From Candidatus Auribacterota bacterium (GTDB lineage: Bacteria > Auribacterota > UBA6266), in the NCBI GenBank assembly GCA_023136205.1, contig JAGLRQ010000026.1:1-17532 (forward strand): a stretch of DNA of 17,532 nucleotides, written 5' to 3'. The notes under the pieces were generated by a model. The model saw only the letters and a list, made by a program, of their open reading frames with translations, had not been told where the DNA came from and ran no database searches. The stretch's first letter is position 1; each line of letters begins with the position of its first letter. A program made the position numbers and the translations under genes. This document shows positions 1 through 17,532 of the stretch, one piece after another.

Positions 1-138
1 CGTATTATCAGTTGAGCCATCGTCAATAACGATAATTTCGTGTGCTTTATAATCTTGATTCAGGACACTTTCAATCGCATCTGATATAAATGGTTCCCCG
101 TTATACGCAGGAATTAGTACACTTATTTTTGGATTCAT
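1..138 (-). CDS. Glycosyltransferase family 2, N-terminal fragment (gene continues beyond the left edge)
   Basis: Absent from the supplied ORF track (too short). My translation of the minus strand from ATG at 138 is [46 protein letters not shown]. This is a canonical GT2 N-terminus (SVLIPxYN plus DDGSTD nucleotide-sugar-binding motifs). GGAG (ctcc 147-150 on +) lies 8 nt upstream of the ATG. The gene overlaps the 3' end of the preceding gene by 38 nt in another frame. Confidence 0.8.
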
Positions 139-1528
139 AGTGTTTTCTCCACTCATTAGAAAAGAAACCGACATAATCTGAAAAGGTATTGCCCTGACTT
201 ACATTCTTCCAGAGTTCTCGTGATGCAAAACCTTCCGAAATAAATGGTACATCACTAATCTCTTTTAATAAATTTCTGAGAACTCTTTTGCCTTTACTAT
301 AACCAACGTTATATTTTGCCGGAAGAAACATTGCCGTCTTTATAATAGAAAAGTGATGATGCGGTGAGATAAATTTGACATTTAGCGCGTTTGCAGTCGC
401 TTTAATCCTTTCCATGCCTTCGTTTGAAGACCACAGGAAAAATCGTATGAGACCATAAAATTTTGACCTATCTATCTTCAAGGCGTTATTATAGACATGA
501 TAAACATTTAATATCTCATCCTTGTGTTCTTCCGGCAAATTAAAATGCTCTGTATATACATCGTAAAAGCGAGTTTTGGTCGATTTTATGTAATCCAGCG
601 CCTTGCCTATGATAGTATCTGTACCTACCTTCTTATTGAGATTTATACCGACTCTCTTATTGAGCAATATCTTCTCAAGCAACCACTCCTTGCAATACTC
701 CCTTCCGTTCTGAAAATGAGTGTCTGCCCCATAGCCATCTAACATATAAAATCCCGATATATCCCCCGTGCATTTTACCATTTTTTTAATCATTAAATAT
801 TCAGCTAATCCCGTCACGCAAAAACACGGATCATCGAGACTATCGAAATACGCATTGATATCGGCTGCGTCTACTTTATCCGTTCCATATAAAGTGTTCC
901 ACGGTATATCTTTTAAATGCCCGCCTAATCTTTTTTGCAACCTTTTCTCATCCTCCTGAGTCTCAGCGTAATGGCAAATCTTAACAATATGGTCTTTGAA
1001 TAATTCATATAATAAGAGGGAATCGCATCCACCACTTAACGAAAGTATCGCATTTTTGTTAAAAGAAGATTTTATTTCTGCAATTGCTTTTAAAAAAGCT
1101 CTCCTAAAATCTTCGATATCGTATTTTATGGTGTCGTTAAAATAGCTTTTTAGCTTATCCGTATTATAATTATAAGACCACCTTGATTCCTCTTGCCTCG
1201 AGATCTCCAGACCGATACCCGGCAAGGTTTTTCTTACGCCTTTTAATATCGTAAAAGGATAGGGTACATACCCTCTTTTCAGTTGAATTGGCCAAAGAGC
1301 ATCGTCAATGGAATAATCATAAAAATCCTTCAACTTATTTGAAATGACAATATTTTCGCCTTCGGTTACATAATATAATTTGTCAATTCCGAATAAATCC
1401 GGAGTTAAAATTACCTTGTTGCCAAACACTTCTACTGTGGACCCTATTCTATCCGTAACTATATTCGCTGTTTTATAAACGGTTGTATTGCCGTTCCTAC
1501 CATAGACACCCTTTAATACTACATTCAT
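101..1528 (-). CDS. Asparagine synthetase B-like ATP-dependent amidotransferase/amidoligase (PP-loop), lacking the glutaminase nucleophile
   Basis: 475-aa ORF. It has the PP-loop ATP-pyrophosphatase motif [14 protein letters not shown] at about aa 160-175, as in the AsnB synthetase domain. The N-terminal region is short (about 150 aa) and begins MNVVLKG, so there is no Cys2 Ntn nucleophile. ATG 1528 lies 4 nt after the flippase stop, with GGAGG upstream. Confidence 0.72.
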
Positions 1529-1532
1529 CTAT

Positions 1533-3095
1533 CTACCTACCTCCTCGTTTTCTAAGAAACGCCGGGGTTTTTATCTTTTCTAATCTTGAGTAAAATTTAA
1601 AAAGAAATTCTCGTACAAGTGATTTTTCCCGCATGTCAAATATCAAACTATAGCTTAAAATAAAATAAAAAATCGCGCAAACTAACATTGTCAAAAGCAT
1701 GATTAAAATTGACGCCTTTGTAACAAATTTAAGGTAGTAAAAGAAAAGGCCAAAAGCTGCACATAGTACTAACGGCTTTACAAAGGAATTGATATAAAAT
1801 TTTAAATAAGGAATGCCGGCAATCCTGCAGGTATAGTAAGGAGAAAAAACAAGTGTCTGGAAAAATATAGCAATCGCAGCTCCCAGAGCAAAACCGGCCA
1901 ATCCCATTTTAAAATGAAGCGCGAATAAAAGACTTAGTATAATATTTAAGACAGAGCAAAAGAGCGTAACAATGCTGGGAATTTTAACCTTAGAAAAAGC
2001 TAAAGTAACCCCCCCTGAACACGCAAATACCAAACTGGGAAGCAAACCAACAATATGTATATACATAGGAACTATAGCGTCCTTAAACTTTTCCCCGACC
2101 CACAAAAAGACCAGTTCCTTCCCATAAAGGACGAGCAGTATACAAGCAGGTATTGATATTAGAGCGGAGACTTTGGTAAGAGAGGAATAGATTCGCCCAA
2201 CTCGTTTAAAGTCTTTTTTGGCCACCAATTCCGTAAAAGTCGGGGTTAATCCCCAGAAGGAGCGAGAAATCAACCGCTTCAACATATTCACGAACTTTAG
2301 GCTTATGGCGTATATACCATTAAAGGCCGGGCCCAAAAATCGATTAATCAAAATCATGTCAGTACGCGCGTAAAGCATATGGCCCAGAGAACCAATCGTT
2401 TGGAAGGACATGAAAGAAAAGAGTTCTTTTATTTTCGCGAGAGAGGCATCTTTGATTCTTATTTTTAAATTAGGAAAGAGCTTCTTGGCACCTCTTAAAA
2501 TTAAAACTTGCTCCACCATGACAGCAGCCAAATAGATCCAACCATAGTAATAAAGCTTCGGTGGGAATAGCCCGTATATCAAAAAACAAAGCAAAAAACG
2601 CGTTACATTCCTAAACCCTATATAAATATTAACAAGATCAAAACGCTGCTTGGAGTAGATAACTGCCCAGGCAGGTGTAAATCGGAATCGCAGCAAATAT
2701 GAAACAATCAGAAGAATAAATAATACTCGCATCCCCTGGGCAAATTCTACGGGGACAGTAAAAAGTCTTGTAAAAAATACCCAGATTATAAACCCTATGG
2801 CTGATGCAATTGCTATAATTCCAAATAAAATAACTTCTCCGGATGCAATGTAAGCGTTACTTTCCTCGTGCTTATTTTGCATAAGATAAAACCCCACATA
2901 CCGTCCAAGCGCCAGCCTAAAGCCATTAAATGCCATATCAAAAAACTCAATCAACGATTCCGCCAAGATAATAAGCCCAAAACCCTGCAGACCCAAACTC
3001 CTTATTAAAAACGGGACAAGTGCCAGGCCCAGAATCATTTCAAAAACACGTCCCACATTATTACTAAATATATTTATAAAAATCCGCTTTTTCAC
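1533..3095 (-). CDS. Wzx-type oligosaccharide/polysaccharide flippase (MOP superfamily polysaccharide biosynthesis protein)
   Basis: 520-aa ORF made almost entirely of hydrophobic helices (roughly 12-14) separated by short K/R-rich loops. The N-terminus ...NNVGRVFEMILGLALVPFLIRSLGLQGFG is typical of Wzx/RfbX-like proteins. GTG start at 3095 lies 3 nt after the GT9 stop. The family call is by pattern recognition, not search. Confidence 0.75.
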   Translation of the reverse strand: MKKRIFINIFSNNVGRVFEMILGLALVPFLIRSLGLQGFGLIILAESLIEFFDMAFNGFRLALGRYVGFYLMQNKHEESNAYIASGEVILFGIIAIASAIGFIIWVFFTRLFTVPVEFAQGMRVLFILLIVSYLLRFRFTPAWAVIYSKQRFDLVNIYIGFRNVTRFLLCFLIYGLFPPKLYYYGWIYLAAVMVEQVLILRGAKKLFPNLKIRIKDASLAKIKELFSFMSFQTIGSLGHMLYARTDMILINRFLGPAFNGIYAISLKFVNMLKRLISRSFWGLTPTFTELVAKKDFKRVGRIYSSLTKVSALISIPACILLVLYGKELVFLWVGEKFKDAIVPMYIHIVGLLPSLVFACSGGVTLAFSKVKIPSIVTLFCSVLNIILSLLFALHFKMGLAGFALGAAIAIFFQTLVFSPYYTCRIAGIPYLKFYINSFVKPLVLCAAFGLFFYYLKFVTKASILIMLLTMLVCAIFYFILSYSLIFDMREKSLVREFLFKFYSRLEKIKTPAFLRKRGGR

Positions 3096-3098
3096 CTT

Positions 3099-4223
3099 TT
3101 ACGGCCTCTCGATCTTTTTATTACTACCTATGATTTCTTTTACCTTCTCTAAAACAAATTCAGGGGTTATTAAATCCATACAATCAGATACGGGGCATCG
3201 GCCGTCAAATCTCTGTTTAAAGCAACACAAGCAATCCAAGTCGGGCTGAAGAATCACACCTTTTTCATATAAGTAAAATTCATTTTTATTAAAAATATTA
3301 TTAAGCAGGATAACATTTCTTTTTAAACCAATTGCAATATGCAGGGCCATAGTAACTTGTGTAACAACTACATCGCACTGATCAATTAAATCGACGAATT
3401 CAGAAAGTTCAAAAAATCCTGGATATTTCGCAGAAGTTTCAGTTGAAATGCGCAAGTTTTTCTTGTGCTCTTGAGGGCCGCCAAGAAGCAAGACTTCCAA
3501 ATTTAATTTCTTCAATCCATTTATTAAGTCAATCCAATGCTTGTCTTTCCAGAGCCGCGTTGTCCAGCGCGCACCGCAACCGGTGTTTAATCCTATAACG
3601 GTTTTACGCTTTTCTATATTATCCCAGGATTGATTTACACTCTTTTCCAAAATATATTCCTCACCTTTAAATTCAAAACCACAAATTTCAAAAATTTCCT
3701 GCATGTAATTTTTTGTACCGGCTTTATTCAAGTCATCCCACACCCCTGTGAGCCATTTGCGGGTAGTACTCCCTGTGCTAAGTGGTTTACATTTTCCGAA
3801 AGAATCCATACCAAAACCCGTCTTCTTTTGTGCTTCAATTTCCGATGATAGTGCAATGGCATTGTCATCTTTATCTAAATTAATCAGCCGGGAAAATTCC
3901 TGCGCCTTGAGCCATGTTATATCTTTAAGGTTGAACGAAAGTATTTTATCTACCCACTTAATTGGAACAAAAATTGGATAGTAAGTAAGCCAGACGATTT
4001 CCGCGTGTGGGTAGATACTCCTTAACTTTCTTAATAGAGGTGTCGTCCGGATCACATCACCTGCCGCTCCAAGTTTGATAATTAAAATTCGTTCTTTTAA
4101 CGGTTCATAGAGATTACAACCTTCGCAAAGGCATCCGGTTTTCTTGTGCGGTTTGCATGGGATATGTCCGCGATACCATCTACAATCGGTTTTGGTTATT
4201 CTTGATTTCCGCGGGTTTTTCAT
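3099..4223 (-). CDS. Glycosyltransferase family 9 (heptosyltransferase-like, GT-B) with Cys-rich N- and C-terminal segments
   Basis: 374-aa ORF. RILIIKLGAAGDVIRTTPLLRKLRSIYPHAEIVWLT is the hallmark GT9 N-terminal motif (K-x-x-x-GD, then P-x-L-x-x-L). The second Rossmann half follows (VIGLNTGCGARW..K.W, LLLGGPQE). AAGGAG SD overlaps the stop of the upstream BNR gene. There are five Cys in aa 14-36 and five more in the last 50 aa. Confidence 0.85.
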   Translation of the reverse strand: MKNPRKSRITKTDCRWYRGHIPCKPHKKTGCLCEGCNLYEPLKERILIIKLGAAGDVIRTTPLLRKLRSIYPHAEIVWLTYYPIFVPIKWVDKILSFNLKDITWLKAQEFSRLINLDKDDNAIALSSEIEAQKKTGFGMDSFGKCKPLSTGSTTRKWLTGVWDDLNKAGTKNYMQEIFEICGFEFKGEEYILEKSVNQSWDNIEKRKTVIGLNTGCGARWTTRLWKDKHWIDLINGLKKLNLEVLLLGGPQEHKKNLRISTETSAKYPGFFELSEFVDLIDQCDVVVTQVTMALHIAIGLKRNVILLNNIFNKNEFYLYEKGVILQPDLDCLCCFKQRFDGRCPVSDCMDLITPEFVLEKVKEIIGSNKKIERP

Positions 4224-4236
4224 TTATCGCTTCTCC

Positions 4237-6357
4237 TTACAATTTTGTTTTGTATACTGATCCGGCATAACGCGTAATATAGATATGGAAATCCTTTGGA
4301 TTATAAGCCATGGCGGCGACACCTCTGCCATAGGGTATATCCCCTGTAATTTCCGACCAAGTATGGCCTTTATTATTACTCCAATAAATTTTCCCACCTG
4401 TCTTTCCGTGCCATTGGACAGTGCTGACACCTATCCTATCCGGGTTTTCGGGATGTATAAACATAGCATCCACTGTGCCTTCTCCTGGAAACCTTGTTAG
4501 AAGCAACCAACTCTTTCCATGGTCTTTAGATACAAAAACTACGGGGCCGTTTAAACTACCTGTGACATAAATCCAGCCTTCCGGATTAACTGCCATGTCT
4601 AATACCTTTGTTGTTTTTTTAAACACGCGTTTCCAGGATTTTCCTCTATTCTCCGAGACGTAAACGCCGCCCCTCTTTCCATACGCACCCCAGAATAACC
4701 TATCTGAATTTGTCGGATCAACTGCCAACGCGTTATAAATCCTTTTTGACCCCGGCTGGCCTTCTGAATATTCCCAGTGCCAGCCACCGTCACGCGAAAC
4801 ATAAAGGCCGCCCCCATCATCTCCATCAATACCAAGGTAAACAATGTTGGGCTCTTTTGGGTCCAAAGCTAACGCCCTGGGATAGCCTTCCTTCCACATT
4901 GTATTAATTTTAGGACGCCTTTTCGGCAGCCCGTCTCGAACGGCAATAAAATTCATGCCCGCGTCTCGGCTTATAATAACCTGGTTGAAATCTACACCCC
5001 AGGGAGAGGAGGTCGCGATAATGTGTTTCGGATTTTTCGGGTTTGTAACCACACGCCAGACATGGCCGTTAACACTCTTTCTATAGCCTTTTTGGGGGAA
5101 AACCGGCTTATAGTTCTTGCCTCCGTCGGTGCTTTTTAGCAGGCCATTATCCATAGCAGCTACATAAATTTCGCCAAGAGCTGTGATATGAATATCCGAA
5201 CCCACGGTATTTGGCGAACCGTTAATTTTTTCACTCCATGTCTCCCCCTTATCATCGGAGCGCCATACACCCCATCCATCGCTAAAATAAAGTGTTTCCG
5301 GATCAAATACATCAAATGCTACTGAATTAGACTTGCTGAAATCCTTCTTCCATACACGCGTAGGATTAAGATTTTTATCATGTTTCAAATTCCTCTCAAT
5401 ATCTTTCCATGTCTCTCCGTTATCAGAACTTAGGAACACCCCACCATGCCAGCCTTTTTTCCACCCGGCTAATAATTCAATGTTACCGGAATTATCCTCC
5501 CTAACCGCCAACCTGATTACCTCACCGCGAGGGACGGCACTGGTAAACTGCCATGTTTTACCTTGATCAACACTATAAGCAACCTGTTTACCGGCAGTAA
5601 CATACAAGGCTTCCCTTTGCGCCATAGATACCATATCCCACACTTTTTCGCGCCCGATTTCACTCTTTATCCACTTCTTTCTTTGAAAATCATAATATCT
5701 AAGGCCTAATTCGGACGCTGCAAAGAGTTTCCCTCCGTCACGCGTAAGATGCAGGGCAGTGATCGGAACCCTCTTCCCGAAAGGATATTTGTTCCATCCC
5801 AGAAACCTCCATACTCCCCCGAAATATCGCCATATTTTTCCACCGTTTTGGGAAAAAAGTACTGTCCCGCGGTTTGTTCCTACATATAACTTATTATAAT
5901 CGTGTGGATCTACTACAATAGAACGGTAATTCCCGGGCCTCAAAAAGTTAATTTTGCCCCTCATCGACTCCAAATAACGCCATGTCTTTCCGCCATTATT
6001 CGATCTCATAATTCCGTCTTTTGTCCCTATATAAATCACATTGGAATTAGAAGGCGCTATAGCCAAAACCGCTATATGCAGGTTTATTAATCCCTGGTTG
6101 ATAAAATACCATTTCTCTCCCTTGTCATCGCTTCGCCACAACCCAGTTACATCACTCAAAAGATACACTCTACCTTTAATATTGAGATCTGGCACAACAG
6201 CCGGGTAAGCTCCTCCTCCATACCACCCTGCAAATTCCCAGCCATAGTTCTGCTGTTTTGCCTCGACAGCATCCACACCATGGCAGTATGACAATGCTAA
6301 AAAGAAACCAGCACAATAAAGCAAAAGATTTATTATTTTAATATTCCGTTTCCTCAT
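4237..6357 (-). CDS. Exported BNR/Asp-box repeat protein, probable tandem beta-propeller (GH74 / sortilin-Vps10-like architecture; possible glycan hydrolase or binding protein)
   Basis: 706-aa ORF with a signal-peptide-like N-terminus, MRKRNIKIINLLLYCAGFFLALSYCHGVDAVEA. I count 13 Asp-box or near-Asp-box motifs spaced about 45-60 aa apart: SDDKGEKW, SNNGGKTW, SQNGGKIW, TRDGGKLF, SVDQGKTW, SSDNGETW, SDDKGETW, STDGGKNY, SRDAGMNF, SRDGGWHW, SENRGKSW, SKDHGKSW, SNNKGHTW. Confidence 0.85.
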   Translation of the reverse strand: MRKRNIKIINLLLYCAGFFLALSYCHGVDAVEAKQQNYGWEFAGWYGGGAYPAVVPDLNIKGRVYLLSDVTGLWRSDDKGEKWYFINQGLINLHIAVLAIAPSNSNVIYIGTKDGIMRSNNGGKTWRYLESMRGKINFLRPGNYRSIVVDPHDYNKLYVGTNRGTVLFSQNGGKIWRYFGGVWRFLGWNKYPFGKRVPITALHLTRDGGKLFAASELGLRYYDFQRKKWIKSEIGREKVWDMVSMAQREALYVTAGKQVAYSVDQGKTWQFTSAVPRGEVIRLAVREDNSGNIELLAGWKKGWHGGVFLSSDNGETWKDIERNLKHDKNLNPTRVWKKDFSKSNSVAFDVFDPETLYFSDGWGVWRSDDKGETWSEKINGSPNTVGSDIHITALGEIYVAAMDNGLLKSTDGGKNYKPVFPQKGYRKSVNGHVWRVVTNPKNPKHIIATSSPWGVDFNQVIISRDAGMNFIAVRDGLPKRRPKINTMWKEGYPRALALDPKEPNIVYLGIDGDDGGGLYVSRDGGWHWEYSEGQPGSKRIYNALAVDPTNSDRLFWGAYGKRGGVYVSENRGKSWKRVFKKTTKVLDMAVNPEGWIYVTGSLNGPVVFVSKDHGKSWLLLTRFPGEGTVDAMFIHPENPDRIGVSTVQWHGKTGGKIYWSNNKGHTWSEITGDIPYGRGVAAMAYNPKDFHIYITRYAGSVYKTKL

Positions 6358-6447
6358 TTAGATATTTCCATAGTTAAGAAAAATATGCTTACTCGCAGTT
6401 CAACAAGTACTAATTAATTCAGGTGACTCTTTTCAAAAAAACTTTAA

Positions 6448-7851
6448 TTAGAACCCATCTAAATGAATCATATCTTTAAAACTTTCTTTTTCTCGTACAA
6501 CCCAATGTTTGCCTTCTGAAACCATAACTACAGCAGGACGTGTAAAAGAAAAGTTGTTAGAAAAAGATATACAGTAAGCGCCTGAATCCATAATCGCTAT
6601 AATATCTCCCACTTCTAATGATGGTAATTTCTTACTCCTGTATAATATATCTATAGGTGTACAGATAGGGCCAGCTATCTTATAAAACTCACTGCAATTA
6701 GAGTTCATCTTATTTGCAACAAAAATTTCGTGATATTCCCAAGAAACCGGAGAAGCAATATTTATACCTGCATCAATAATTGCAATTTTAAGCTCACTAT
6801 TTTCTTTTTTTAAATCACAGACTTTTGCAAGTAACATTTGAACATTACTAGTAATTACTCTCCCTGGCTCAAATAACAAAACTGGTAATTTTAGTTTATA
6901 CCTCTCACATTCTTTACAGACCGTACTTACAATTTTTTTTGCAAATACTCTCATAGAGGGAGTATCTTCAATATTTGGCGGCAGATATGGTTTATTAAAA
7001 CTATGATGCAATTTAGATTCAGTTTTGCTAAAACTTTTTACAGTTGACACACCAAACCCTCCACCTAAGTCAAGATATTTAATATAAACACCTAGTTTAT
7101 CTTTTATCTCATTAACAAATCCGAAAATCTCTCCCATTGCCTTTTCATACATAGAAGTGCTTTTTATATCGGTCCCAAGATGAATATGTATAGCTTCTAT
7201 CTCCAGACACCTCATTTTGCCTAATTTTTCAAATGCGTTAAATGCTTCCCCTGATTTTATTTTAAATCCAAACTGACTTCCCCATCCAATACTTGTGCAT
7301 ATCCTCACCCCAACTTTTGGACGTATTCCTAGACTTTCTGCAATTTTTTTGATTTTTTCAATTTCATTAAAAGAATTAATGTTGATAAGCTTAATTCTAT
7401 TTTTAATAGCTACTTTTAAACTTTCATCCGATTTATTAGGCCCGTTATAAATAATTAAATCCGGACTTACTCCTAATTTGAACGCAAGCCATAATTCATA
7501 AGGTGATATAACTTCTGCTCCTGCTCCACTTTCATGAAGAACCTTTAAAATTGCCGGTATAGGATTTGTTTTATATGAATAGTAAATTCCGAAATTAATA
7601 TTATTAGATTTAAAACTTTCATAAAATTCATTGTAATTTTTTTTTAATAGATCTCTGTCCACGACATGGATAGGCGTACCGTATTTTTCGGCTAGTCCAA
7701 CACAATTACAGCCCCCAATTACTAAACGGCCTCTTTTATTTACCTCCAATCCCCATAATGAATAATCCAGGTTAGTGGTTTTTCTTCTTTCAAATCTGCA
7801 TATTACATACTTAATAAACAGTAACAATATTTTTTTTATTAGTTTTTTCAT
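6448..7851 (-). CDS. PLP-dependent decarboxylase, alanine-racemase fold (fold III; diaminopimelate/ornithine/carboxynorspermidine decarboxylase family), substrate unknown
   Basis: 467-aa ORF with the family motifs: PLP-lysine YYSYKTNP, HIHLGTD, glycine loop LDLGGGFGV, EPGR, active-site Cys GPICTPIDIL, and MDSGAY. The core starts ...AEKYGTPIHVVD as in LysA/ODC. A roughly 35-aa extension with a hydrophobic helix (KKILLLFIKYVICRF) precedes it. There is no SD before ATG 7851. The gene is very A+T-rich. Confidence 0.85.
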   Translation of the reverse strand: MKKLIKKILLLFIKYVICRFERRKTTNLDYSLWGLEVNKRGRLVIGGCNCVGLAEKYGTPIHVVDRDLLKKNYNEFYESFKSNNINFGIYYSYKTNPIPAILKVLHESGAGAEVISPYELWLAFKLGVSPDLIIYNGPNKSDESLKVAIKNRIKLININSFNEIEKIKKIAESLGIRPKVGVRICTSIGWGSQFGFKIKSGEAFNAFEKLGKMRCLEIEAIHIHLGTDIKSTSMYEKAMGEIFGFVNEIKDKLGVYIKYLDLGGGFGVSTVKSFSKTESKLHHSFNKPYLPPNIEDTPSMRVFAKKIVSTVCKECERYKLKLPVLLFEPGRVITSNVQMLLAKVCDLKKENSELKIAIIDAGINIASPVSWEYHEIFVANKMNSNCSEFYKIAGPICTPIDILYRSKKLPSLEVGDIIAIMDSGAYCISFSNNFSFTRPAVVMVSEGKHWVVREKESFKDMIHLDGF

Positions 7852-7863
7852 TATTTATAAGAT

Positions 7864-9515: not shown

Positions 9516-9527
9516 AATAATCTCCAT

Positions 9528-10847
9528 CTACTTATTTTCAGCACATGAATTATCCTGCGTATTGTCTTTCGTAACAATTTGCATCTCTTTTTTTCTAAGT
9601 TGAAGAGCAACATTGTCTTCCGGAAATTCCACCATATCATACGCAATAGGCGCATCTCTGGTTACATTCTTCTTCAATATGGCAAATTCCGTCAACCCTA
9701 TCGGAACCAGATTCTCCTTGCGAACGGTTTCCGCACGGTCTATTAATCCATAAACGGTAAAACCGCCTATCCCGTCCAGACGCACTCCTGCCCCAATGTT
9801 TTTCTTTGCCACAGCAAGAACATCGGCAACCTTTCTCTTGTGCGGCAAGGTAGCAATATTAAATAAAGCCGCTTCAACTACCGACTTGGCCGCCGCAAAG
9901 TAACAAAGATGATGATCCTTAAAAAACAAATAATAGGGCCCCTTACCCTTTTTCAGGTAATCCAGATCTTCAGCTACGAATTTATCTTTTCTTTTACCCA
10001 CAACAAAAACACCAGCTGCCTGGTTAATGCCCTTAATTCCCATCACGTAATCAACAACCCCTTCCTGTTTAATTATCTTAAGGAAATCTTCCACAAGATT
10101 AACTTTAGTAGTTGTTGGACCGTGCATACCTCTCTTATCAGGAACAAGCTCTGTTCCATTGGCCAATACGGCCATCTCCAACCCCTGTTTTGTTCCGTCA
10201 GCGAAAGAAGATATCATTCGTGGATTATGCCCGGGACGAACCCATGGTAAAACCCCTTCGGGATTCTGGTAAACATCTATAAAATTCTTGGAACTTCCAG
10301 CAATAACTATATCAAATCCATATAACTTAACCTCGTCAATCATCTGGGATATTACACACGGCTGGTCACCGTCAGTGGTAGAATATACAACGTTCTTTTC
10401 CTTAGCAAGTTGGTGGACAGCAAAGCCCAGTGTGCTGTCCATTTCGATGTTAGCTGTAACAAAATGGATTCCCTGCTGAATGGTGCTCACAGCACATTCG
10501 GCACCTACTTTTATATCACCGGTTGTTTCAAAAACGACATCAATCCCCGTAAGGTTTTGTAATATTTCCAGTTCCGCGCTTACAATATATTTGTTTTTTG
10601 AATTAGCTGCTTTATATTCTTTGTCAGAGGTAACTACTTCTATGTCGGAAGGCGATACCCCCGCGTATTTTAAAGATTTTACAGCACGTTCTATTGTACG
10701 CGTCACGATCAATCGGGGAACTATACCAGGCCAATGGTAGAATTCACGAATTACGCCACTCCCAAACCATCCAGAGCCTACAACACAAACGGAAATTAAC
10801 TCATTTCGTTTTTGTCGCTCAAGTAAAATCTCCCTGAAAATTCTCAT
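9528..10847 (-). CDS. NAD(P)-binding oxidoreductase, homoserine-dehydrogenase-like N-domain with C-terminal SAF-like domain (COG4091-type architecture, function unknown)
   Basis: 439-aa ORF with Rossmann motif VCVVGSGWFGSG. IDVVFETTGD..GAECAVSTIQQGIHFVTANIE..GDQPCV resembles a homoserine-dehydrogenase-type NAD-binding domain. The C-terminal AKKNIGAGVRLDGIGGFTVYGLI resembles a SAF beta-clip. The family is recalled from memory, not searched. AGGAG lies 6 nt upstream of ATG 10847. This is the first gene after the 523-bp intergenic region. Confidence 0.62.
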   Translation of the reverse strand: MRIFREILLERQKRNELISVCVVGSGWFGSGVIREFYHWPGIVPRLIVTRTIERAVKSLKYAGVSPSDIEVVTSDKEYKAANSKNKYIVSAELEILQNLTGIDVVFETTGDIKVGAECAVSTIQQGIHFVTANIEMDSTLGFAVHQLAKEKNVVYSTTDGDQPCVISQMIDEVKLYGFDIVIAGSSKNFIDVYQNPEGVLPWVRPGHNPRMISSFADGTKQGLEMAVLANGTELVPDKRGMHGPTTTKVNLVEDFLKIIKQEGVVDYVMGIKGINQAAGVFVVGKRKDKFVAEDLDYLKKGKGPYYLFFKDHHLCYFAAAKSVVEAALFNIATLPHKRKVADVLAVAKKNIGAGVRLDGIGGFTVYGLIDRAETVRKENLVPIGLTEFAILKKNVTRDAPIAYDMVEFPEDNVALQLRKKEMQIVTKDNTQDNSCAENK

Positions 10848-10982
10848 GTTTAACTCCTATCATTTTTCTCTTAGGATTAATAGTTTCTGCCAAGAATTAA
10901 AAAAAATTGCAGATAGCTTTTGCATCAGTAACATCTTTTGCAGTTAAGGTCGGATTCATATACTGGAGAGAGAAATACAGTT

Positions 10983-11052
10983 GAAAGGATCCTTCCCTTT
11001 ATAGATACCAATTGACCACCCAAATTCCTTTTTTCCAAAAGGGAAACCTTTC
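10983..11052. repeat. Interrupted inverted repeat (6+8 bp arms, 37-nt spacer) in the putative leader of the minus-strand operon
   Basis: GAAAGG(10983-10988)-ATCC-TTCCCTTT(10993-11000) is complementary to AAAGGGAA(11038-11045)-A-CCTTTC(11047-11052). That gives 14 Watson-Crick pairs. A competing small hairpin, CCTTTT-TTCC-AAAAGG (11027-11042), shares the 3' arm. Confidence 0.4.
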
Positions 11053-11157
11053 GATTTGCCAAAATATACCCCAGCTATAAAACTGCACATAATACATATA
11101 GATAGCATAAATATGTTAAGTCAATTTAATTCCGATTTAATACGGCCTGACTTTGCT

Positions 11158-11179
11158 TGTTATTGTTATAACAATAACA
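11158..11179. promoter_or_regulatory. 22-bp perfect palindrome, candidate operator for a dimeric DNA-binding protein
   Basis: TGTTATTGTTA|TAACAATAACA. All 11 pairs were verified by hand, and symmetry breaks at 11157/11180. Each half is a tandem TGTTA pentamer. The site lies in the divergent intergenic region, about 35 bp upstream of a TTGACT hexamer on the minus strand (11124-11119) and about 150 bp upstream of the plus-strand -10 candidate. Confidence 0.5.
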
Positions 11180-11322
11180 GAAATATAGAGAATATTTTAA
11201 CATAAAAAGTCTATAAAAGCCAATTAACTTTTTTAATTTAACATTTCTATAATACGACTTAAATTTTTTCCCACAAATTCCCAAAACAAAGAGTGTACGG
11301 AGTTTTGTTTCTTGTAAAAATG

Positions 11323-11331
11323 TGATAGAAT
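11323..11331 (+). promoter_or_regulatory. Candidate extended -10 promoter element (TGnTAGAAT) for the plus-strand sulfotransferase
   Basis: TGATAGAAT at 11323-11331, 40 nt upstream of ATG 11371. GGAG SD sits at 11360-11363. The -35 is poor (TTTTGT). The context is A+T-rich, so a chance match is plausible. Confidence 0.3.
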
Positions 11332-11370
11332 AAAACAACATAACACAAGTATCTTTATCGGAGAGTAAAA

Positions 11371-12126
11371 ATGCCTATCTTTCATAAATATAAGTGTATA
11401 TTTATTCATATACCTAAAAGTGCCGGTACCAGCATAAATGCCGCGCTGGGTATCGGAAGGGAAGGTATACAGAGCCTATTTGGGAAGATAAGCGAAGAGG
11501 AAAAAGCAAAATACGGATTAACTCATACGTATTGGCATCATTGTCCCATCTCTTTGATAAAACCGTTTATACCTGAAGGCACTTTTAATAAATACTTTAA
11601 ATTCACTTTTCTAAGAAACCCCTGGGACAGGCTTGTTTCCCTCTATCTTTATTACAAACGGATTAATCGCCTGGATAATATAGACGCGTTTAACCAGTGG
11701 ATATTATCTAAAAAAATTCCTAGCTACCTTTTGATTCCGCAACTCGATTATATCACTGACAATAAGGGAAATATTATCGTAGATTTTATCGGCCGCTTCG
11801 AGAACATGGATAAAGACTGGAAATATATTACCAAAAAAACAGGCGCAAACACCAAGCTGCTGCCGGTAAATATATCTAATCGTAAACATTATAGCTTTTA
11901 CTATACTGAAGAAACCATTCGGGTTGTCGGAGAACTTTTTAGAAAAGACATTGAGACATTCGGCTATAGATTTGAAAAGGCCGGTTTTTTTAAAAACAGG
12001 GTGTATGATGTAAAACATCTGGCTTTATTCAGCGGAGAACGCACTATATTAAAAATAAAGACACTCTTAAAAGAGACATTTCCCAAGTTATATTTGAAAC
12101 TTAAAAAATTTAAACAAAAATTGTGA
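11371..12126 (+). CDS. Sulfotransferase (Sulfotransfer_2-like, carbohydrate-sulfotransferase-type motifs)
   Basis: 251-aa ORF. IFIHIPKSAGTSI (5'-phosphosulfate-binding loop) lies near the N-terminus, and FTFLRNPWDRLVSLY (3'-phosphate-binding motif) lies about 65 aa later. GGAG is 7 nt upstream of the ATG. This is the only plus-strand gene. Confidence 0.8.
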   Translation: MPIFHKYKCIFIHIPKSAGTSINAALGIGREGIQSLFGKISEEEKAKYGLTHTYWHHCPISLIKPFIPEGTFNKYFKFTFLRNPWDRLVSLYLYYKRINRLDNIDAFNQWILSKKIPSYLLIPQLDYITDNKGNIIVDFIGRFENMDKDWKYITKKTGANTKLLPVNISNRKHYSFYYTEETIRVVGELFRKDIETFGYRFEKAGFFKNRVYDVKHLALFSGERTILKIKTLLKETFPKLYLKLKKFKQKL

Positions 12127-12186
12127 TACCCTCAGGTTATAATTTAAGTAAACACCGGCCGTATTCTATACTTTTTGAAAATAAAA

Positions 12187-13503
12187 TCAATTGTGTTTTT
12201 TTGAGAAAATAATTATATTTTCCCATTTACTATAGTACCTTTTTGACAGCGGAAACGCAATTTTCAGTTTCCATAATAAATTACAATATAAGAACTTAAA
12301 TAAAGGAAATTTAAAAATTATAACAAAAAATAAACATAAAAACTTACCCCTTGTGGCCCATTTCATATTTTTGGTTATTTCTTCAACATAAACGCGATAT
12401 TCATGTAAAGCTTCTCTATTTTTGTGATATCTTAGAAACATCGCAGTCCTTATTTTTTTATTGGCAATAACTTTCGCATGATAAAATTCTGCTTTCTCGG
12501 TATAAAGATGACCCGCTGTTTTAAACTTTTCTAACATAATTTCACCTATTTGTGTTCTTGCCAGCACAAGATTCAAGTCGCCGTGTTTATCCCAAGTATC
12601 GCCTATTGCTATATCAGCAAATTCATTAGTATGATTTATGCATAGTTGGCATCTTAAGGGAGAATAATAGGGTGACAAGAGGATGTGGGGGCGCTGCCCC
12701 CAGAGTTCATTGATTTGTTTCACCCGACCATCTGCCAAAATAATTTTTGTTTGATACCCATTAATCTTATCTCTATTAGAATATTTTTTTATCGTAGCTT
12801 TGTTGATCTTCTGTTCACGTAATAGCTTTTCTGTAACTGTCTGTTTTACATTAATCCCGCAAAAAATTCCCAAGGTCAAAAGGATTTTTTGTCTAAAAAT
12901 ACTACTTATATCTTGAAGTTTTCTTACACTTTCTATCGCACAGGGAACACCGATAACCGCGTATTTACCTTCAAGTGTTTTGATTTTTTTTAGTAACGAA
13001 TTAACAGGTATGCATACATATTTCGACCCTGAGTTTTTAATTATATCTTCGCCATTAAAAACAAGTTTACCTTCAGGTACCCATGGCTTCTGTTCAGAAT
13101 ATCCCGCAAGGATTACTCCTTTGACTATTTTTTCATCCAAGAGAAATTTAGCCAATCCACTTGTAACACCGCCGCTGGCACAACTATCTATATTAATATT
13201 TTTTGCCTTGGCATAAAAACATTTCCGGTATATCCCATAATGCTGCCTGGTTTCTAACATGCTTCCAAAAACCGTTTTATAAAGATTTGGGTAATCAATA
13301 TTATAGCCGGGGCAAACTTTTAAGCACAAACCACAATTATTACATTTATCATTAACTTTAATTGGCTCTAAGGTATGGTTATTAATCCCTAAACAGTTTA
13401 AGGGGCAGATCCCGATACAAGTGCCGCAAATAGAACAAAGCCCTTTTTTAATAACATCGGAGCTAAGCACATCAACATTTTGTTTATTATCAAGTATTTT
13501 CAT
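12187..13503 (-). CDS. 2x[4Fe-4S] ferredoxin domain fused to coenzyme F420 hydrogenase/dehydrogenase beta-subunit (FrhB)-like domain
   Basis: 438-aa ORF with two CxxCxxCxxxCP motifs (CSICGTCIGICP, CNNCGLCLKVCP). FrhB-type signatures follow (SGGVTSGLAKFLLDEKIVKGVI; VIGVPCAIESVRKLQ). The C-terminal tail is hydrophobic (FLCLFFVIIFKFPLFKFLYCNLLW). The gene is A+T-rich and has no obvious SD. Confidence 0.78.
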   Translation of the reverse strand: MKILDNKQNVDVLSSDVIKKGLCSICGTCIGICPLNCLGINNHTLEPIKVNDKCNNCGLCLKVCPGYNIDYPNLYKTVFGSMLETRQHYGIYRKCFYAKAKNINIDSCASGGVTSGLAKFLLDEKIVKGVILAGYSEQKPWVPEGKLVFNGEDIIKNSGSKYVCIPVNSLLKKIKTLEGKYAVIGVPCAIESVRKLQDISSIFRQKILLTLGIFCGINVKQTVTEKLLREQKINKATIKKYSNRDKINGYQTKIILADGRVKQINELWGQRPHILLSPYYSPLRCQLCINHTNEFADIAIGDTWDKHGDLNLVLARTQIGEIMLEKFKTAGHLYTEKAEFYHAKVIANKKIRTAMFLRYHKNREALHEYRVYVEEITKNMKWATRGKFLCLFFVIIFKFPLFKFLYCNLLWKLKIAFPLSKRYYSKWENIIIFSKKHN

Positions 13504-13540
13504 CAGAAAAGTTTATTTTTTGATTAGTCACTTCTCTCCC

Positions 13541-14569
13541 CTACAGTGGCAGATCCGGCCAGAACTTTTTCAAAGGTGAATCCTTTATGACCAAGGCAAT
13601 ATCTCTCTTCTCCTCATCAGAAAGCTGAGTCTTCCACTTATTCATACTCTTCCTGGGATCTTTGAATATACTGTAATAGGACTTGAGTGTTGATCTATGT
13701 ATTTTCTTTTCCGTAGTCGTCTTCTTGATATAATCTTTGGTAAATTCCGTCATTTCCCATCCTGCAAAGTCAAAGATCCTTTTTGATACTCCAAGCGGAT
13801 CCCTGCACATATCCTCATATACTATCAATAACCCGTTATCATAATTCTCTATAAATTCGACCATAGGTTCTACGTGAATTCGCCACGCGACTGCACCAAA
13901 AGTCTGTAGATTCATTTTTTCAAGGCCATCTGAGTATTTCAAAAACGACTTGTTGCCGGATTGAACAATTTCCTCGCGAAGAAGTCCATTTATTTTCGCA
14001 CGTAAGCTTTTAGCTTTTCCTTTTTCCAAATCCGGCTGAGGAGATTTTGGACGCACTCCTTTGAATAAATGTCCTTTTACTCCGACTAAGTGCGAAGCAA
14101 CATTCGCAAAAGGATTTCTAACCAGGCCAACTATCTTCGGCTTAAGAATGCGGCAGAAATCGGGAAGCTTTTCGCTTGGAAAATTAACCTGTTTAATCAA
14201 GACTGAAATTTCGTGCTTAGCATGGTTAAGTCGCGGCTTACCGTAATATTCATAAAGGCCTTTACACCGTTTCACCCTATTAGCCAGGGCATATAGCGCA
14301 TGAAGTAGAATTGGGTTTTGCGGCCGGAAAGACTTTGGTAAGAACGGGGGCATATCGACTCCATGATGACATTGCAGGCATAGCTTTTCAAATTGAGCAC
14401 GAAGTTTTTCCGCATCCGGCTTATTTAAACTGTCAAACCAGCCGCGATACGGAATCTTGAGGTATGGCTCGTACTTATAAACGCAGTGATAGTAGGTGTT
14501 CATAATACCAGCCATCCAGCTTGTACCCGAACGGCCCCTGCCAATAAGCACTACATATTCCTTTATCAT
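13541..14569 (-). CDS. Sulfotransferase (P-loop GxxRSGTS type, distinct family from the 251-aa enzyme)
   Basis: 342-aa ORF. VVLIGRGRSGTSW (5'-PSB) lies at the N-terminus, and GLVRNPFANVASH (3'-PB) about 150 aa later. AGGAG is 5 nt upstream of ATG 14569. The gene follows cysC after a 94-nt gap. Confidence 0.8.
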   Translation of the reverse strand: MIKEYVVLIGRGRSGTSWMAGIMNTYYHCVYKYEPYLKIPYRGWFDSLNKPDAEKLRAQFEKLCLQCHHGVDMPPFLPKSFRPQNPILLHALYALANRVKRCKGLYEYYGKPRLNHAKHEISVLIKQVNFPSEKLPDFCRILKPKIVGLVRNPFANVASHLVGVKGHLFKGVRPKSPQPDLEKGKAKSLRAKINGLLREEIVQSGNKSFLKYSDGLEKMNLQTFGAVAWRIHVEPMVEFIENYDNGLLIVYEDMCRDPLGVSKRIFDFAGWEMTEFTKDYIKKTTTEKKIHRSTLKSYYSIFKDPRKSMNKWKTQLSDEEKRDIALVIKDSPLKKFWPDLPL

Positions 14570-14663
14570 AAAAACTCCTGACGGATTACAAGAATAAATT
14601 TAATCTATTGTTCGCGGCTTTTAAATAATTCTATCTTCTTCATTCGAATATTCTTTCAACTTC

Positions 14664-15263
14664 TTATGACAAAATCTTCACCAGTGTTAATTCTAAAACC
14701 TTTCGCGCTGACTCTTTAAGCGTAAGCCGTGTTGTATCTATGATTAAATCCGGATCTTCCGGTTCTTCATATGGTGAAGTAACGCCGGTAAAATTATCGA
14801 TTTCGCCTTGCGCGGCTTTTTTATATAGGCCTTTGGGGTCTCTTTGCGCGCATGTTTCAGGACTTGCTTTTATGTACACTTCTATGAAGCCGTCCTTTTC
14901 GGCCTTTGTTTTCGCGAACTCCCGCATTTTTCTATAAGGTGAAATAAATGATACGAGAGTGATCAATCCCGCGTCTTTAAATAATGCCGCGGCTTCAGCT
15001 ATCCTCCGGATATTTTCGTTTCTATCTTCTTCGGAAAAGCCAAGATCAGAGTTTAGGCCATGTCTGATATTGTCTCCATCCAGTCTGTAAACAGCTTTTC
15101 CTCTCGCGTTCAATTCTTTTTCCAGCTCCACAGCTATTGTTGACTTGCCCGAACCGGAAAGCCCGGTGAACCAAACCACCAGGCCTTTCTGATTAAGCAA
15201 GCGGCAGCGCTCATTATAAGTAACTTTGCCTTTGTGCCATTTAAGGTTTGAGTTGTTGTTCAT
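14664..15263 (-). CDS. cysC: Adenylylsulfate (APS) kinase
   Basis: Near-canonical motifs: P-loop VVWFTGLSGSGKSTIA, LDGDNIRHGLNSDLGFSEEDRNENIRR, FISPYR, and lid KGLYKKAAQGEIDNFTGVTSPYE. I prefer ATG 15263 (MNNNSNLKWHKG...), which has GGAG 4 nt upstream. The track's GTG at 15281 would overlap cysN by 7 nt. Confidence 0.95.
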   Translation of the reverse strand: MNNNSNLKWHKGKVTYNERCRLLNQKGLVVWFTGLSGSGKSTIAVELEKELNARGKAVYRLDGDNIRHGLNSDLGFSEEDRNENIRRIAEAAALFKDAGLITLVSFISPYRKMREFAKTKAEKDGFIEVYIKASPETCAQRDPKGLYKKAAQGEIDNFTGVTSPYEEPEDPDLIIDTTRLTLKESARKVLELTLVKILS

Positions 15264-15274
15264 GTTTCTCCGGA

Positions 15275-17050
15275 TCACCACGGACTAAATATCAATCCCC
15301 TGCGCCGCAGCATTTCTTTAATGGTATCCGCAGCTTTTTCCTCCGACTCAAGAAAAGGTATATGCAAATCATACGCGATATCCGTTGATACGTCCTCGCC
15401 AAGCCATACCGTCTCTATCATATCAGGGTTAACCGTTGTTTTGATAATCTCCAGGTCGTCCTGCCCCAGGCCTATTGCTGTTACAATCAGTATGGTCCCC
15501 GCGTCAAGCAGAATATGCGATACCTCGGCAAGCCTTCTCAAATGTTCTTCCCTATTATTCTGACTGCCTTTTATATCAGCGTCCACACCATACAGAACAT
15601 TGCCTATGCCGAGAAAATAGACAAACCTTCCGTCATTAAACAGTTTTTGTTCCAATGCTTTTGCCAGCCTTTTCTTCCCTGTGTCTTTCTGCCCGGTTAT
15701 AAGAATAAGCGTAGGTTTCTGGTTATATCTTTCCGCTCTTCTTCCAGGCGGGATAGTTGTGCTTTCCCATTTATAATTACGGAGCATCACTTTCTCGCGG
15801 ATCCGGCTCTGTTTATCTTCCAGTGCCTCCCGGATAATTCCGCCGCCTGCTATTTCATAATTGTCTACGATAACAAAACGGCTTGTGCCGGAAAATTCAT
15901 GGACAAGATCAAATGCAATGGCTCTATTGGCCTTTAATACGCATTCGGCAACATCATGCCTTTCTATCCGTTCTTTTACCGCATTGCCGAGGTTTGACGC
16001 GTCAATGATATTCGCTATCCCTTCCAGTTTTACCTCTACCTTTGCCGTACCCACTTTTAAATAATATGTTTTCTTCTTTTCCATTGGATCCCTGCTTAAC
16101 CAGAATAAATCAGCCTTTATCCTTGAGGTAACCGCCGGTTTTCTCTGGGATTCAAGAGAAGCCATTTCTCCCCTGCTAATATATATCTGTTCCTCCAGTG
16201 TGAACCCGGCCGCGTATCCCGCGTTTATGGAACCAGAGGCTTCCCTGTTAAAAAGTTCTATTGATTTGACCGTACTTTTCTTCCCTGACGGGTAAAATAC
16301 TACTTTATCCCCGGCGCTTATCTTTCCTGACTCGATGGTTCCCGCCACAATTCTTCTGTCATCGCCGTCTCTGGTGAATTTATAAACATCCTGTACAGGC
16401 ATCCGAAACGGTTTATCTTTCGGCTGTTCCTCTGTCTCAAACGAATCTAATATATCCAGCACTGTCTTTCCCTTATACCATTTCATATTGTCTGAATTCG
16501 CGGCAATGGTATCGCCTGTTACTCCGCTTACCGGTATAAACGCGTGGGGGGTGATGTTTATTTTCTTTAAAAAGCGGGTATATTCCAACACAATCGCGTT
16601 AAATACTTTTTCATCATAGCCGACCAGATCCATCTTATTTACCAGTATTGCTACCTGTTCAACGCCGAGCATTGACAACATATACCCGTGCCGGCGGGAA
16701 TTCTCCCGTACACCCTCATTGGCGTCGATCACCAGCAATGCCGCTTCGGCTCTTGAAGCACCGGTTACCATGTTTTTCAGAAATTCTATATGCCCGGGCG
16801 CGTCAATGATGATGTAATCCCTTTTGCGGGTTTTAAAGAAGCAGCGCGCCGCATCAATCGTGATTCCCTGTAACTGCTCGTCTTTGAGCGCGTCAAGGAG
16901 AAACGCGTACTCAAAAGGCCTGGAATTACGCCGGCACTTCTCTTTTACCTGTTCTAATTTTCCCTCAGGCAATGAGTGTGTGTCCGCCAAAAGCCTTCCG
17001 ATGATGGTACTTTTACCGTGATCAACATGGCCTACTATTACAATATTCAT
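15275..17050 (-). CDS. cysN: Sulfate adenylyltransferase subunit 1 (GTPase) fused to a degenerate APS-kinase-like C-terminal domain
   Basis: GTPase motifs G1 [10 protein letters not shown]3 DAPGH and G4 [25 protein letters not shown] matches the CysN switch region. The gene starts 12 nt after the cysD stop. The last 147 aa are homologous to CysC but lack its catalytic motifs (see findings). Confidence 0.92.
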
Positions 17051-17062
17051 AATTTTTTCAAC

Positions 17063-17532
17063 TCACATATATCCGTCTTTTCGCAAATCCTCAAGCCCGC
17101 CGCCGTCTTCTTTATCCTGCGATCTTCCGGAGCGTTCAGCTATATTCGCGAACTTTCCCGTTTTCAATTCTTCAATAATCTCTTTTACGTTTTTTGCCGT
17201 AGATTCCACGGGATCGGTGCAAGGCTCACAGCCAAGGGAACGATACCTTTTGCCTTCCCCCTGATCAAAATACAAGGACACCACAGGGATGTTTTCTCTA
17301 TTGATATATTCCCAGATATTCAGCTCTGTCCAGTCAAGCAAAGGGTGTATCCTTACGTGTGTCCCCGGGGCAAAATCCGTTTTATACTGATTCCAGAATT
17401 CCGGCGGCTGATCGCCTAAATTCCAATCATTATTTCCGTCTCTCGGGGAGAAATACCGTTCTTTTGAGCGGCTTCCCTCTTCGTCCGCCCTTACACCAAC
17501 AATCACCCCGGTGTACGGCTCAGTGCTCTTGT
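17063..17532 (-). CDS. cysD: Sulfate adenylyltransferase subunit 2, C-terminal part (5' end beyond the right edge)
   Basis: The reading frame stays open to the window edge: ...[80 protein letters not shown]. This matches the conserved C-terminal two thirds of CysD. The track's M at 17506 is an internal GTG. Confidence 0.93.

Follow-up and report, generated by a model that had tools for sequence, protein, structure and literature searches.

The DNA stretch considered here (the window, 17,532 nucleotides at its full length) comes from an uncultured Candidatus Auribacterota bacterium of a deep-sea cold seep and probably carries a self-supplied glycan-sulfation locus, in which a dedicated module for the synthesis of 3'-phosphoadenosine-5'-phosphosulfate (PAPS) feeds two sulfotransferases, designated ST1 and ST2, that serve a Wzx-flipped glycan. 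All genes of the window lie on the minus strand except the ST2 gene (plus strand). The sulfation operon within the window reads, in transcription order, cysD-cysN-cysC-ST1-frhB-like. Its genes are tightly spaced: 12 nt separate cysD from cysN, cysN and cysC overlap (or are 11 nt apart if an alternative cysC start is used), and ST1 is followed by the frhB-like gene after 37 nt.

The genes were called from a six-frame listing of open reading frames combined with Pfam and NCBIfam hidden Markov model (HMM) scans with curated cut-offs. All 15 genes named in a preliminary description of the window, made from its letters alone, were recovered at their places in this way. That description had proposed that cysD, cysN and a genuine cysC are co-oriented with a sulfotransferase across a 94-nt gap, with a second sulfotransferase next door; the family cut-offs are passed, the gap is exact and the CysC P-loop is canonical. 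The adjacent operon was also found as described, with a family 2 glycosyltransferase (GT2), a family 9 glycosyltransferase (GT9), a GT2 fragment, a Wzx-like flippase, tailoring enzymes and a BNR protein with a signal-peptide-like N-terminus.

An ENA scaffold (scaffold_552, locus L037; sample SAMN18200497) matches the window at 100% identity across 12,258 nt, and its sample is a metagenome from the Site-F cold seep, South China Sea (PMC9357000). An identical copy of the FrhB-like protein is encoded in an NCBI metagenome-assembled genome (MAG) labelled Candidatus Aureabacteria, a taxon now named Candidatus Auribacterota and placed in the PVC (Planctomycetes-Verrucomicrobia-Chlamydiae) group. The readable flanks extend ~1.7 kb beyond the left edge of the window (locus L005) and 9.1 kb upstream of cysD (L037), where the contigs end.

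PAPS synthesis and the two sulfotransferases

The small subunit of sulfate adenylyltransferase is encoded by cysD (17063..17532, minus strand), of which the window holds the C-terminal 155 codons, the gene running off the right edge. With the NCBIfam model PRK05253 (cut-off 195) the fragment scores 202 bits and the full 293-aa protein on L037 scores 349 bits. Assignment of the fragment to cysH or an adenosine-5'-phosphosulfate (APS) reductase was rejected, since these weaker matches are explained by the common PAPS_reduct fold. The GTPase subunit of ATP sulfurylase is encoded by cysN (15275..17050, minus strand; 591 aa; TIGR02034 344.6 vs. a cut-off of 336.1). The C-terminus of CysN (residues ~430–591; window 15275–15760, minus strand) is a truncated APS-kinase-like domain, in which the Pfam APS_kinase model covers residues 446–541 only and the P-loop is degenerate (GQKDTGKK in place of GxxGxGKS/T). 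Thousands of homologues in anaerobes (Halanaerobiales, including Halanaerobium; Clostridium, Marinitoga, Calditrichaceae) have this ~600-aa layout, and the kinase-like tail may serve in regulation or as a scaffold.

Canonical APS kinase is encoded by cysC (14664..15281, minus strand; PF01583 225.9 bits; TIGR00455 246.7 vs. a cut-off of 138.7). The true start of this gene is likely the ATG at 15263, which gives a protein of 199 aa, as in the scaffold gene call. The Walker A motif of CysC is intact (GLSGSGKST), and comparison of this canonical P-loop with the degenerate one in the CysN tail points to the separate cysC product as the working kinase.

The ST1 gene (13541..14569, minus strand), 94 nt downstream of cysC, encodes a PAPS-dependent sulfotransferase of the Sulfotransfer_1/3 type (PF00685 43.3 vs. 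a cut-off of 22). An alignment of 27 ST1 homologues conserves both the 5'-phosphosulfate-binding motif (5'-PSB), GRGRSGT[ST]W (GRGRSGTSW in ST1), and the 3'-phosphate-binding motif (3'-PB), RNPFAN..S (RNPFANVAS in ST1). An AlphaFold (AF2) model built on this alignment reached a pLDDT of 87, and a Foldseek search of the Protein Data Bank (PDB) with the model returned exclusively PAP/PAPS sulfotransferases (TPST1/2, CurM-ST, Stf9, SULTs) at a probability of 1.0 and TM-scores of 0.4–0.58.

The second sulfotransferase, ST2 (11371..12126, plus strand), is encoded convergently with the cys-ST1-frhB operon and belongs to the carbohydrate-type Sulfotransfer_2 family. It scores 56.2 with PF03567 (cut-off 22), and the match covers profile positions 6–251 of 252. 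The motifs HIPKSAGTS and FLRNPWDRLVS, identified by eye at the expected places, fit the patterns PKxxGT(S/T) and RxPxxRxxS. A single-sequence AF2 model of ST2 had a pLDDT of 42, too poor for fold comparison, and a phmmer search of the PDB with ST2 gave no meaningful match. The preliminary description had named a lack of PAPS binding in the two proteins as a finding that would overturn it; both keep the PAPS-binding motifs and are, at the sequence level, predicted PAPS enzymes.

The genomic surroundings of homologues bear on the acceptor. At 60–63% identity, ST1 homologues neighbor Wzx, family 4 glycosyltransferases (GT4), B12-radical-SAM enzymes and other sulfotransferases, including ST2. At 43–47% they occur in cyanobacterial clusters with 4–6 sulfotransferases, GT2/GT4 enzymes, Wzx, Wzc-like ATPases and rml (rhamnose) genes. 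ST2 is 27–30% identical to family-2 sulfotransferases of a Tritonibacter plasmid exopolysaccharide (EPS) cluster and of the capsule-like region of Sinorhizobium pSymB. No match to ST1 was obtained by tblastn among 72,556 plasmids, pSYSM included. Because homologues of ST1 and ST2 lie among polysaccharide genes, a glycan is the most likely acceptor, as judged from gene context only.

The operon ends with a gene that was absent from the preliminary gene list. It encodes an FrhB/FdhB-like flavoprotein (12187..13503, minus strand; PF04432 103 bits, PF04422 55 bits) with two N-terminal [4Fe-4S] ferredoxin motifs (CxxCxxCxxxCP), CSICGTCIGICP and CNNCGLCLKVCP, and a hydrophobic C-terminal tail. Its relatives in the PDB are 8RIU_B/8RJA_E and the N-terminal half of Fsr, and it resembles the flavin Fe-S modules of the F420/ferredoxin type. 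The function of a sulfite-reductase electron module, which the likeness to the Fsr N-terminus could suggest, was rejected, since there is no siroheme domain.

The FrhB-like gene is kept beside ST1, ST2 and DRL (an oxidoreductase gene described below) in the sister genome (locus L006; MAG CBDURG01, ~91% nucleotide identity), where the gene order is HTH-tylF-cysD-cysN-cysC-ST1-frhB-ST2-DRL-GT2-GNAT with an additional permease gene. The same four genes recur on a JGI contig (Ga0063293_10018265, L041), with identities of 82% for the FrhB-like protein (L041:5-607), 63% for ST1, 69% for ST2 (on the opposite strand) and 68% for DRL. The gene order on this contig is changed and extra genes are inserted, and the FrhB-like protein is the most conserved member of the set, which indicates selection for keeping the four genes together. 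Of the more distant FrhB-like homologues, one belongs to a polysaccharide locus that lacks sulfotransferases (L035) and another has unrelated neighbors (L036); given these mixed contexts, sulfation specificity of the whole FrhB-like family was rejected. A query of JGI metagenome contigs with the FrhB-like protein gave one weak match (1.5 kb).

B12-binding radical SAM enzymes recur in polysaccharide loci of ST1 homologues (L041:2823-4421, L042:3047-4393) and in that of an FrhB-like homologue (L035:6382-7929); none is encoded in the gene set of the window.

The glycan operon, its flanks and the destination of the product

The glycan operon occupies the left part of the window on the minus strand and is led by the gene of a DRL-type NAD(P) oxidoreductase (9528..10847), which is homoserine-dehydrogenase-like (PF21135 134 bits; PDB 3UPL/3UPY, E 1.7e-49). 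A GT2 glycosyltransferase (8595..9527; PF00535 69.1 bits) and a weak GNAT-like acyltransferase (7864..8622; PF00583 21.8 vs. a cut-off of 20.7; no NCBIfam match) follow. The next gene (6448..7851) encodes a fold-III pyridoxal-phosphate (PLP) decarboxylase, a paralogue of LysA (PF02784 125 bits, PF00278 56 bits). This enzyme scores 274.3 with the lysA model TIGR01048, below its cut-off of 297.9, and its best match in the PDB is the diaminopimelate (DAP) decarboxylase 1TWI (2.9e-57).

A BNR/Asp-box beta-propeller of the Sortilin-Vps10 type (4237..6357, minus strand; 706 aa; PF15902 126 bits, BNR 54.5 bits) has a signal-peptide-like N-terminus, MRKRNIKIINLLLYCAGFFLALSYCHGVDA, recognized by eye. 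With the F510_1955 glycosylhydrolase family it scores 153.8, below the cut-off of 175, and it may be a secreted enzyme processing the polymer. The GT9 glycosyltransferase (3099..4223, minus strand; PF01075 38.4 vs. a cut-off of 22) is Cys-rich at both termini, CRWYRGHIPCKPHKKTGCLCEGC at the N-terminus and CLCCFKQRFDGRCPVSDC at the C-terminus, which suggests metal-binding motifs atypical for heptosyltransferases of lipopolysaccharide (LPS) synthesis. The Wzx/MOP-family flippase (1533..3095, minus strand) matches PF13440 (Polysacc_synt_3, 49.7 bits), PF01943 (Polysacc_synt, 33.9 bits) and MatE (34.7 bits), as well as the NCBIfam MOP flippase model NF007773 (E 4e-15).

An AsnB-like PP-loop ATP-pyrophosphatase (101..1528, minus strand), a candidate amidoligase, matches TIGR01536 at 3e-11, well below the cut-off. 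It has no N-terminal glutaminase domain, and the SGGxDS motif is invariant across the family alignment. The family is rare, with 26 representative clusters at E<1e-10 among 1.84 billion, and some of its members exceed the Pfam Asn_synthase cut-off; one of them (P0204, 935 aa) carries an unannotated N-terminal extension of ~480 aa. The single sequence has no match in the PDB, and the family profile matches E. coli AsnB marginally (E 9e-4). At the left edge the window contains the first 46 codons of a further GT2 (1..138, minus strand), the translation of which includes VIDDGSTD and which continues past the edge. Its full 325-aa version is present in locus L005, followed by another GT2.

An AT-rich intergenic region of 523 nt (10848..11370) separates the divergent ST2 gene from the DRL-led operon and is presumed to be a divergent promoter region. 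Promoter-like and terminator pattern counts in the window are not above those of shuffled sequences, so the operon boundaries are drawn from gene spacing alone; an Rfam scan of the window found no RNA family.

According to the proposed scheme, CysDN, encoded in the tylF-cysD-cysN-cysC-ST1-frhB-like operon, would activate sulfate to APS, which would be phosphorylated to PAPS by CysC and consumed on the spot by ST1 and the convergently encoded ST2. The acceptor would most likely be a lipid-linked oligosaccharide repeat unit, built at the cytoplasmic face of the membrane by the GT2, the GT9 and the further GT2. An amino-acid-derived substituent would probably be added. The candidates for this step are the LysA-like PLP decarboxylase, the DRL dehydrogenase, the GNAT protein and the AsnB-like amidoligase, which by analogy could make an amine and attach it, perhaps through an amide bond to a uronic acid; the visible part of the locus contains no uronic-acid gene. 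Wzx would flip the unit outward, and the secreted BNR propeller could act on the polymer by trimming or processing it. The gene identities, the intact motifs, the operon geometry, the lack of reductive genes in the vicinity and the conservation of the module in relatives are observed directly. The glycan nature of the acceptor, how many sulfate groups it receives and where, what the amine decoration is, what the FrhB-like protein does and where the product ends up (EPS, capsule or LPS) are deductions from the gene set.

Additional genes of interest lie on L037 beyond the right edge of the window. A TylF-like O-methyltransferase gene (L037:8222-9028; L006:536-1354) lies 79 nt upstream of cysD in the same orientation and is conserved in both genomes. 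It thus probably opens the sulfation operon, and O-methylation of the product is a further possibility. Further away from cysD come PEP-CTERM genes, a toxin-antitoxin-like pair, EpsI, a PDDEXK (PDDEXK_3) protein and an exosortase. The exosortase/EpsI/PEP-CTERM cassette (L037 734..8039) is thus outside the window and ends ~1 kb upstream of cysD. It was recognized by the models 8TM_EpsH (163.8 vs. 105.55), EpsI_fam (53.8 vs. 42.8) and, in one protein, PEP_CTERM (18 vs. 16). Five further PEP-CTERM tails were identified by eye from a (T/A)PEP motif, a hydrophobic stretch and a basic cluster. Altogether there are six small signal-peptide proteins with such tails, for example TPEPVNSALFLLGGAVLAFGCRWKTKRRQKA, encoded by two divergent and then four co-oriented genes, two of them near-identical paralogues. 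These proteins are rich in Tyr and Trp flanked by Asp or Glu (WTYEYDETPW, EYEFSDYYNEEWERD). The toxin-antitoxin-like pair consists of two overlapping small genes (L037:6020-6633; 106 and 98 aa).

As a sub-case of the glycan-sulfation model, the product could be LPS (core or O-antigen), as with Sinorhizobium LpsS, rather than EPS or capsule, with the GT9 working on the core while O-units are flipped by Wzx. Heptosyltransferases make up the GT9 family, Wzx is common to the O-antigen and EPS pathways, and no export genes of the Wzc/Wza type were seen, all of which would fit. However, the GT9 of the window falls well short of all the heptosyltransferase equivalog cut-offs of NCBIfam, genes for heptose, Kdo, WaaL or lipid A are missing from the vicinity, and the adjacent exosortase/PEP-CTERM cassette belongs to a class of systems (PEP-CTERM/EpsH) typically linked to EPS loci. 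LPS as the product is distinctly unlikely.

Dedicated sulfation, assimilation and alternative acceptors

Several observations weigh against a dedicated glycan-sulfation locus. The top structural neighbors of ST1 are the human tyrosylprotein sulfotransferases TPST1/2 (E 1.5e-6, TM 0.47–0.58). Of the retrieved loci with ST1 homologues, that of the sister genome (~91% identity) is the only one in which cysDNC adjoins ST1, which makes the synteny support for the cys-ST1 link shallow. In Bacteroides the operon logic proposed here serves a non-glycan acceptor (BT_0416; PMC9417993). The preliminary description had spoken of a Wzx-type glycan locus, of which the flippase is present; a Wzy polymerase, a priming phosphoglycosyltransferase, chain-length and export proteins (PCP/OPX) and nucleotide-sugar genes were found neither in the window nor in the readable flanks and may be located elsewhere in the genome.

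One alternative is that cysDNC represents a general assimilatory sulfate-activation operon placed beside a glycan locus by chance, and that the sulfotransferases draw on the common PAPS pool. Assimilation uses the same CysDN and CysC enzymes, CysN proteins of ~600 aa occur widely among free-living anaerobes (Halanaerobium, Clostridium and Marinitoga, for example), and the shallow synteny noted above also counts in favor of this explanation. It is nevertheless improbable in view of the gene neighborhood. The preliminary description had found the window free of cysH and sulfite reductase and had raised the possibility of cysH/cysIJ just past the right edge; the HMM matches of the window include neither gene, nor do the 9.1 kb that lie upstream of cysD on L037, and both are also lacking in the L006, L031 and L032 loci. 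ST1 and the frhB-like gene are parts of the same tight operon as cysDNC.

In L006 an extra gene is inserted between cysC and ST1 (L006:4824-5840), where the window has the 94-nt spacer. It encodes a 338-aa permease of the PHO4/PiT family, which among the NCBIfam models is matched best by that of the CysP sulfate permease (214 bits, short of the cut-off of 400). The L006 operon thus has a predicted uptake-activation-transfer layout, with the same logic as Bacteroides BT_0411-0416. The closest CysN relatives outside the genus (71–73%; L031 and L032) are encoded in the arrangements manC-gmd-epimerase-cysD-cysN-cysC-Rrf2-TauE and ugd-cysQ-cysD-cysN-cysC; their neighbors are cysQ and nucleotide-sugar genes, not reductases. 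The habitat is sulfidic, and Auribacterota are described as anaerobic fermenters releasing H2 and sulfide, with assimilatory sulfate reduction listed for other phyla only (PMC9324843). The lack of nearby reductive genes, the L006 permease and the contexts of the CysN relatives favor a role in sulfation rather than prove it, and PAPS could serve both sulfation and assimilation.

According to another alternative, one or both sulfotransferases act on an acceptor other than a polysaccharide: on tyrosines of the six PEP-CTERM proteins, in the manner of RaxST/RaxPQ, or on a lipid or small molecule, in the manner of BT_0416. The structural likeness of ST1 to TPST1/2, the many Tyr residues flanked by Asp/Glu in the neighboring PEP-CTERM proteins and the Bacteroides operon, in which an importer and PAPS genes accompany a sulfotransferase serving cholesterol, speak for this. 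However, Foldseek ranks TPST, CurM-ST, Stf9 and SULTs almost equally, at 12–16% identity, so the structural matches of ST1 do not discriminate between acceptors. Homologues of ST1 and ST2 consistently occur among glycosyltransferases and flippases, ST2 is of the carbohydrate type, and oppositely oriented genes separate the PEP-CTERM cassette from the cys operon. A non-glycan acceptor is accordingly held to be very unlikely.

A glycan-sulfation locus with its own PAPS supply remains the best-supported reading. The proposal of the preliminary description that the module is dedicated to sulfation of a glycan is upheld to this extent by the sulfotransferase motifs, the absence of cysH nearby, the L006 permease and the contexts of homologues; the polysaccharide nature of the acceptor and its double sulfation, which were also part of that proposal, are putative.

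Comparison with known systems and significance of the locus

The gene combination had been described as matching none of a few known cases of bacterial glycan sulfation. The novelty that this implies has been overtaken by Vibrio sp. KMM 8419, the Actinoplanes wps-1 cluster and Bacteroides BT_0411-0416. In Vibrio sp. KMM 8419, reported in 2024, a second copy of cysNDC and three sulfotransferases are located in the capsular polysaccharide (CPS) cluster, the sulfated product of which has been structurally solved; such a combination of genes was regarded by the authors as a hallmark of sulfated polysaccharide synthesis (PMC11641403). The present locus shares with this cluster the cysN, cysD and cysC genes next to sulfotransferases and glycosyltransferases in a polysaccharide cluster. 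The Vibrio system differs in its ABC-transporter (Kps) export, its 80 genes and its chemically solved product, whereas the present locus is of the Wzx type, unites PAPS genes and a sulfotransferase in one operon, includes FrhB-like and amine-tailoring genes, belongs to another phylum and is known from genes alone.

The wps-1 cluster of Actinoplanes missouriensis, reported in 2026, is a Wzx/Wzy system whose two sulfotransferases come from different families; it also encodes a methyltransferase and a glycoside hydrolase, and the phenotype depends on a neighboring gene for sulfate adenylyltransferase/APS kinase (PMC13390465). Each of these features has a parallel here: dependence on Wzx, sulfotransferases of two families, a methyltransferase, a glycoside hydrolase and PAPS synthesis encoded close by. 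The differences are the actinomycete host, the presence of Wzy/Wzz in wps-1 and the lack there of FrhB-like, PLP decarboxylase and AsnB-like genes; in both cases sulfation is putative.

Synechan synthesis in Synechocystis PCC 6803 relies on the xss genes, an EPS cluster of the Wzx/Wzy type with two sulfotransferases of distinct subfamilies, and PAPS, cysN and sulfate adenylyltransferase are unmentioned in the corresponding paper (PMC8205485). The xss cluster on pSYSM contains a gene (L045:22553-22993) annotated in RefSeq as "cyanoexosortase A system-associated protein", which parallels the exosortase cassette by the present locus. The XssQRS regulators of the synechan cluster have no counterpart here. 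ST1 was also considered as an orthologue of XssA or XssE and this was rejected: XssE gave a BLASTP E value of 0.001 over 93 aa and an hhalign probability of 77%, and XssA was not significant, with 23%.

In Bacteroides thetaiotaomicron a sulfate importer and PAPS genes lie next to a sulfotransferase (BT_0411-BT_0416), the acceptor of which is cholesterol (PMC9417993). Its own PAPS supply is a common feature with the present locus, and L006 has the same permease-containing layout; the cholesterol acceptor and the lack of adjacent glycosyltransferases or a flippase set the Bacteroides operon apart. Dedicated CysDN/CysC paralogues supplying PAPS to a pathway-specific sulfotransferase are likewise known from rhizobial NodPQ/NodH and Xanthomonas RaxPQ/RaxST. 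The acceptor of NodH is a lipo-chitooligosaccharide and that of RaxST a secreted peptide, and the gene sets and taxa differ from those of the present locus. EPS-associated EpsH/EpsI systems are resembled through the exosortase, EpsI and six PEP-CTERM proteins beside the locus. For Pontiella, sulfated glycosaminoglycan-like exopolymers and a putative biosynthetic cluster have been reported (PMC7356697). In the only detailed study of the phylum Auribacterota there is no mention of sulfotransferases (PMC9324843).

New in the present case are the host phylum, the FrhB-like partner, whose linkage to both sulfotransferases persists in a more distant relative, and the upstream exosortase/PEP-CTERM cassette. 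The habitat, the wiring of PAPS synthesis to ST1 within a single operon and the rare AsnB-like enzyme are further distinguishing features.

Sulfated polysaccharides are valued biomaterials, and in the sea they constitute recalcitrant carbon shaping which microbes feed on what. Until recently, cyanobacteria were regarded as practically the only bacteria that make them. With this locus, an uncultured anaerobic phylum of the PVC group, here from a deep-sea cold seep, joins the candidate producers. The module is compact and portable, and in the sister genome permease, PAPS synthesis and sulfotransferase are combined in one operon. Since the principle has already been published, the locus extends the known range of such systems and leaves the concept unchanged.

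Two candidate associations, with the FrhB-like redox enzyme and with the exosortase/PEP-CTERM cassette, are flagged by the locus. It is conceivable, though unlikely, that the sulfated glycan is coupled to the cassette, for example as a matrix or modification partner of the six proteins, and that its synthesis perhaps includes a ferredoxin-type redox step performed by the FrhB-like protein. Within the literature library searched, no paper links PEP-CTERM/exosortase systems to sulfotransferases. If true, this reading would for the first time give FrhB-like proteins of bacterial polysaccharide loci a functional context and would provide the first exosortase-sulfation link outside cyanobacteria.

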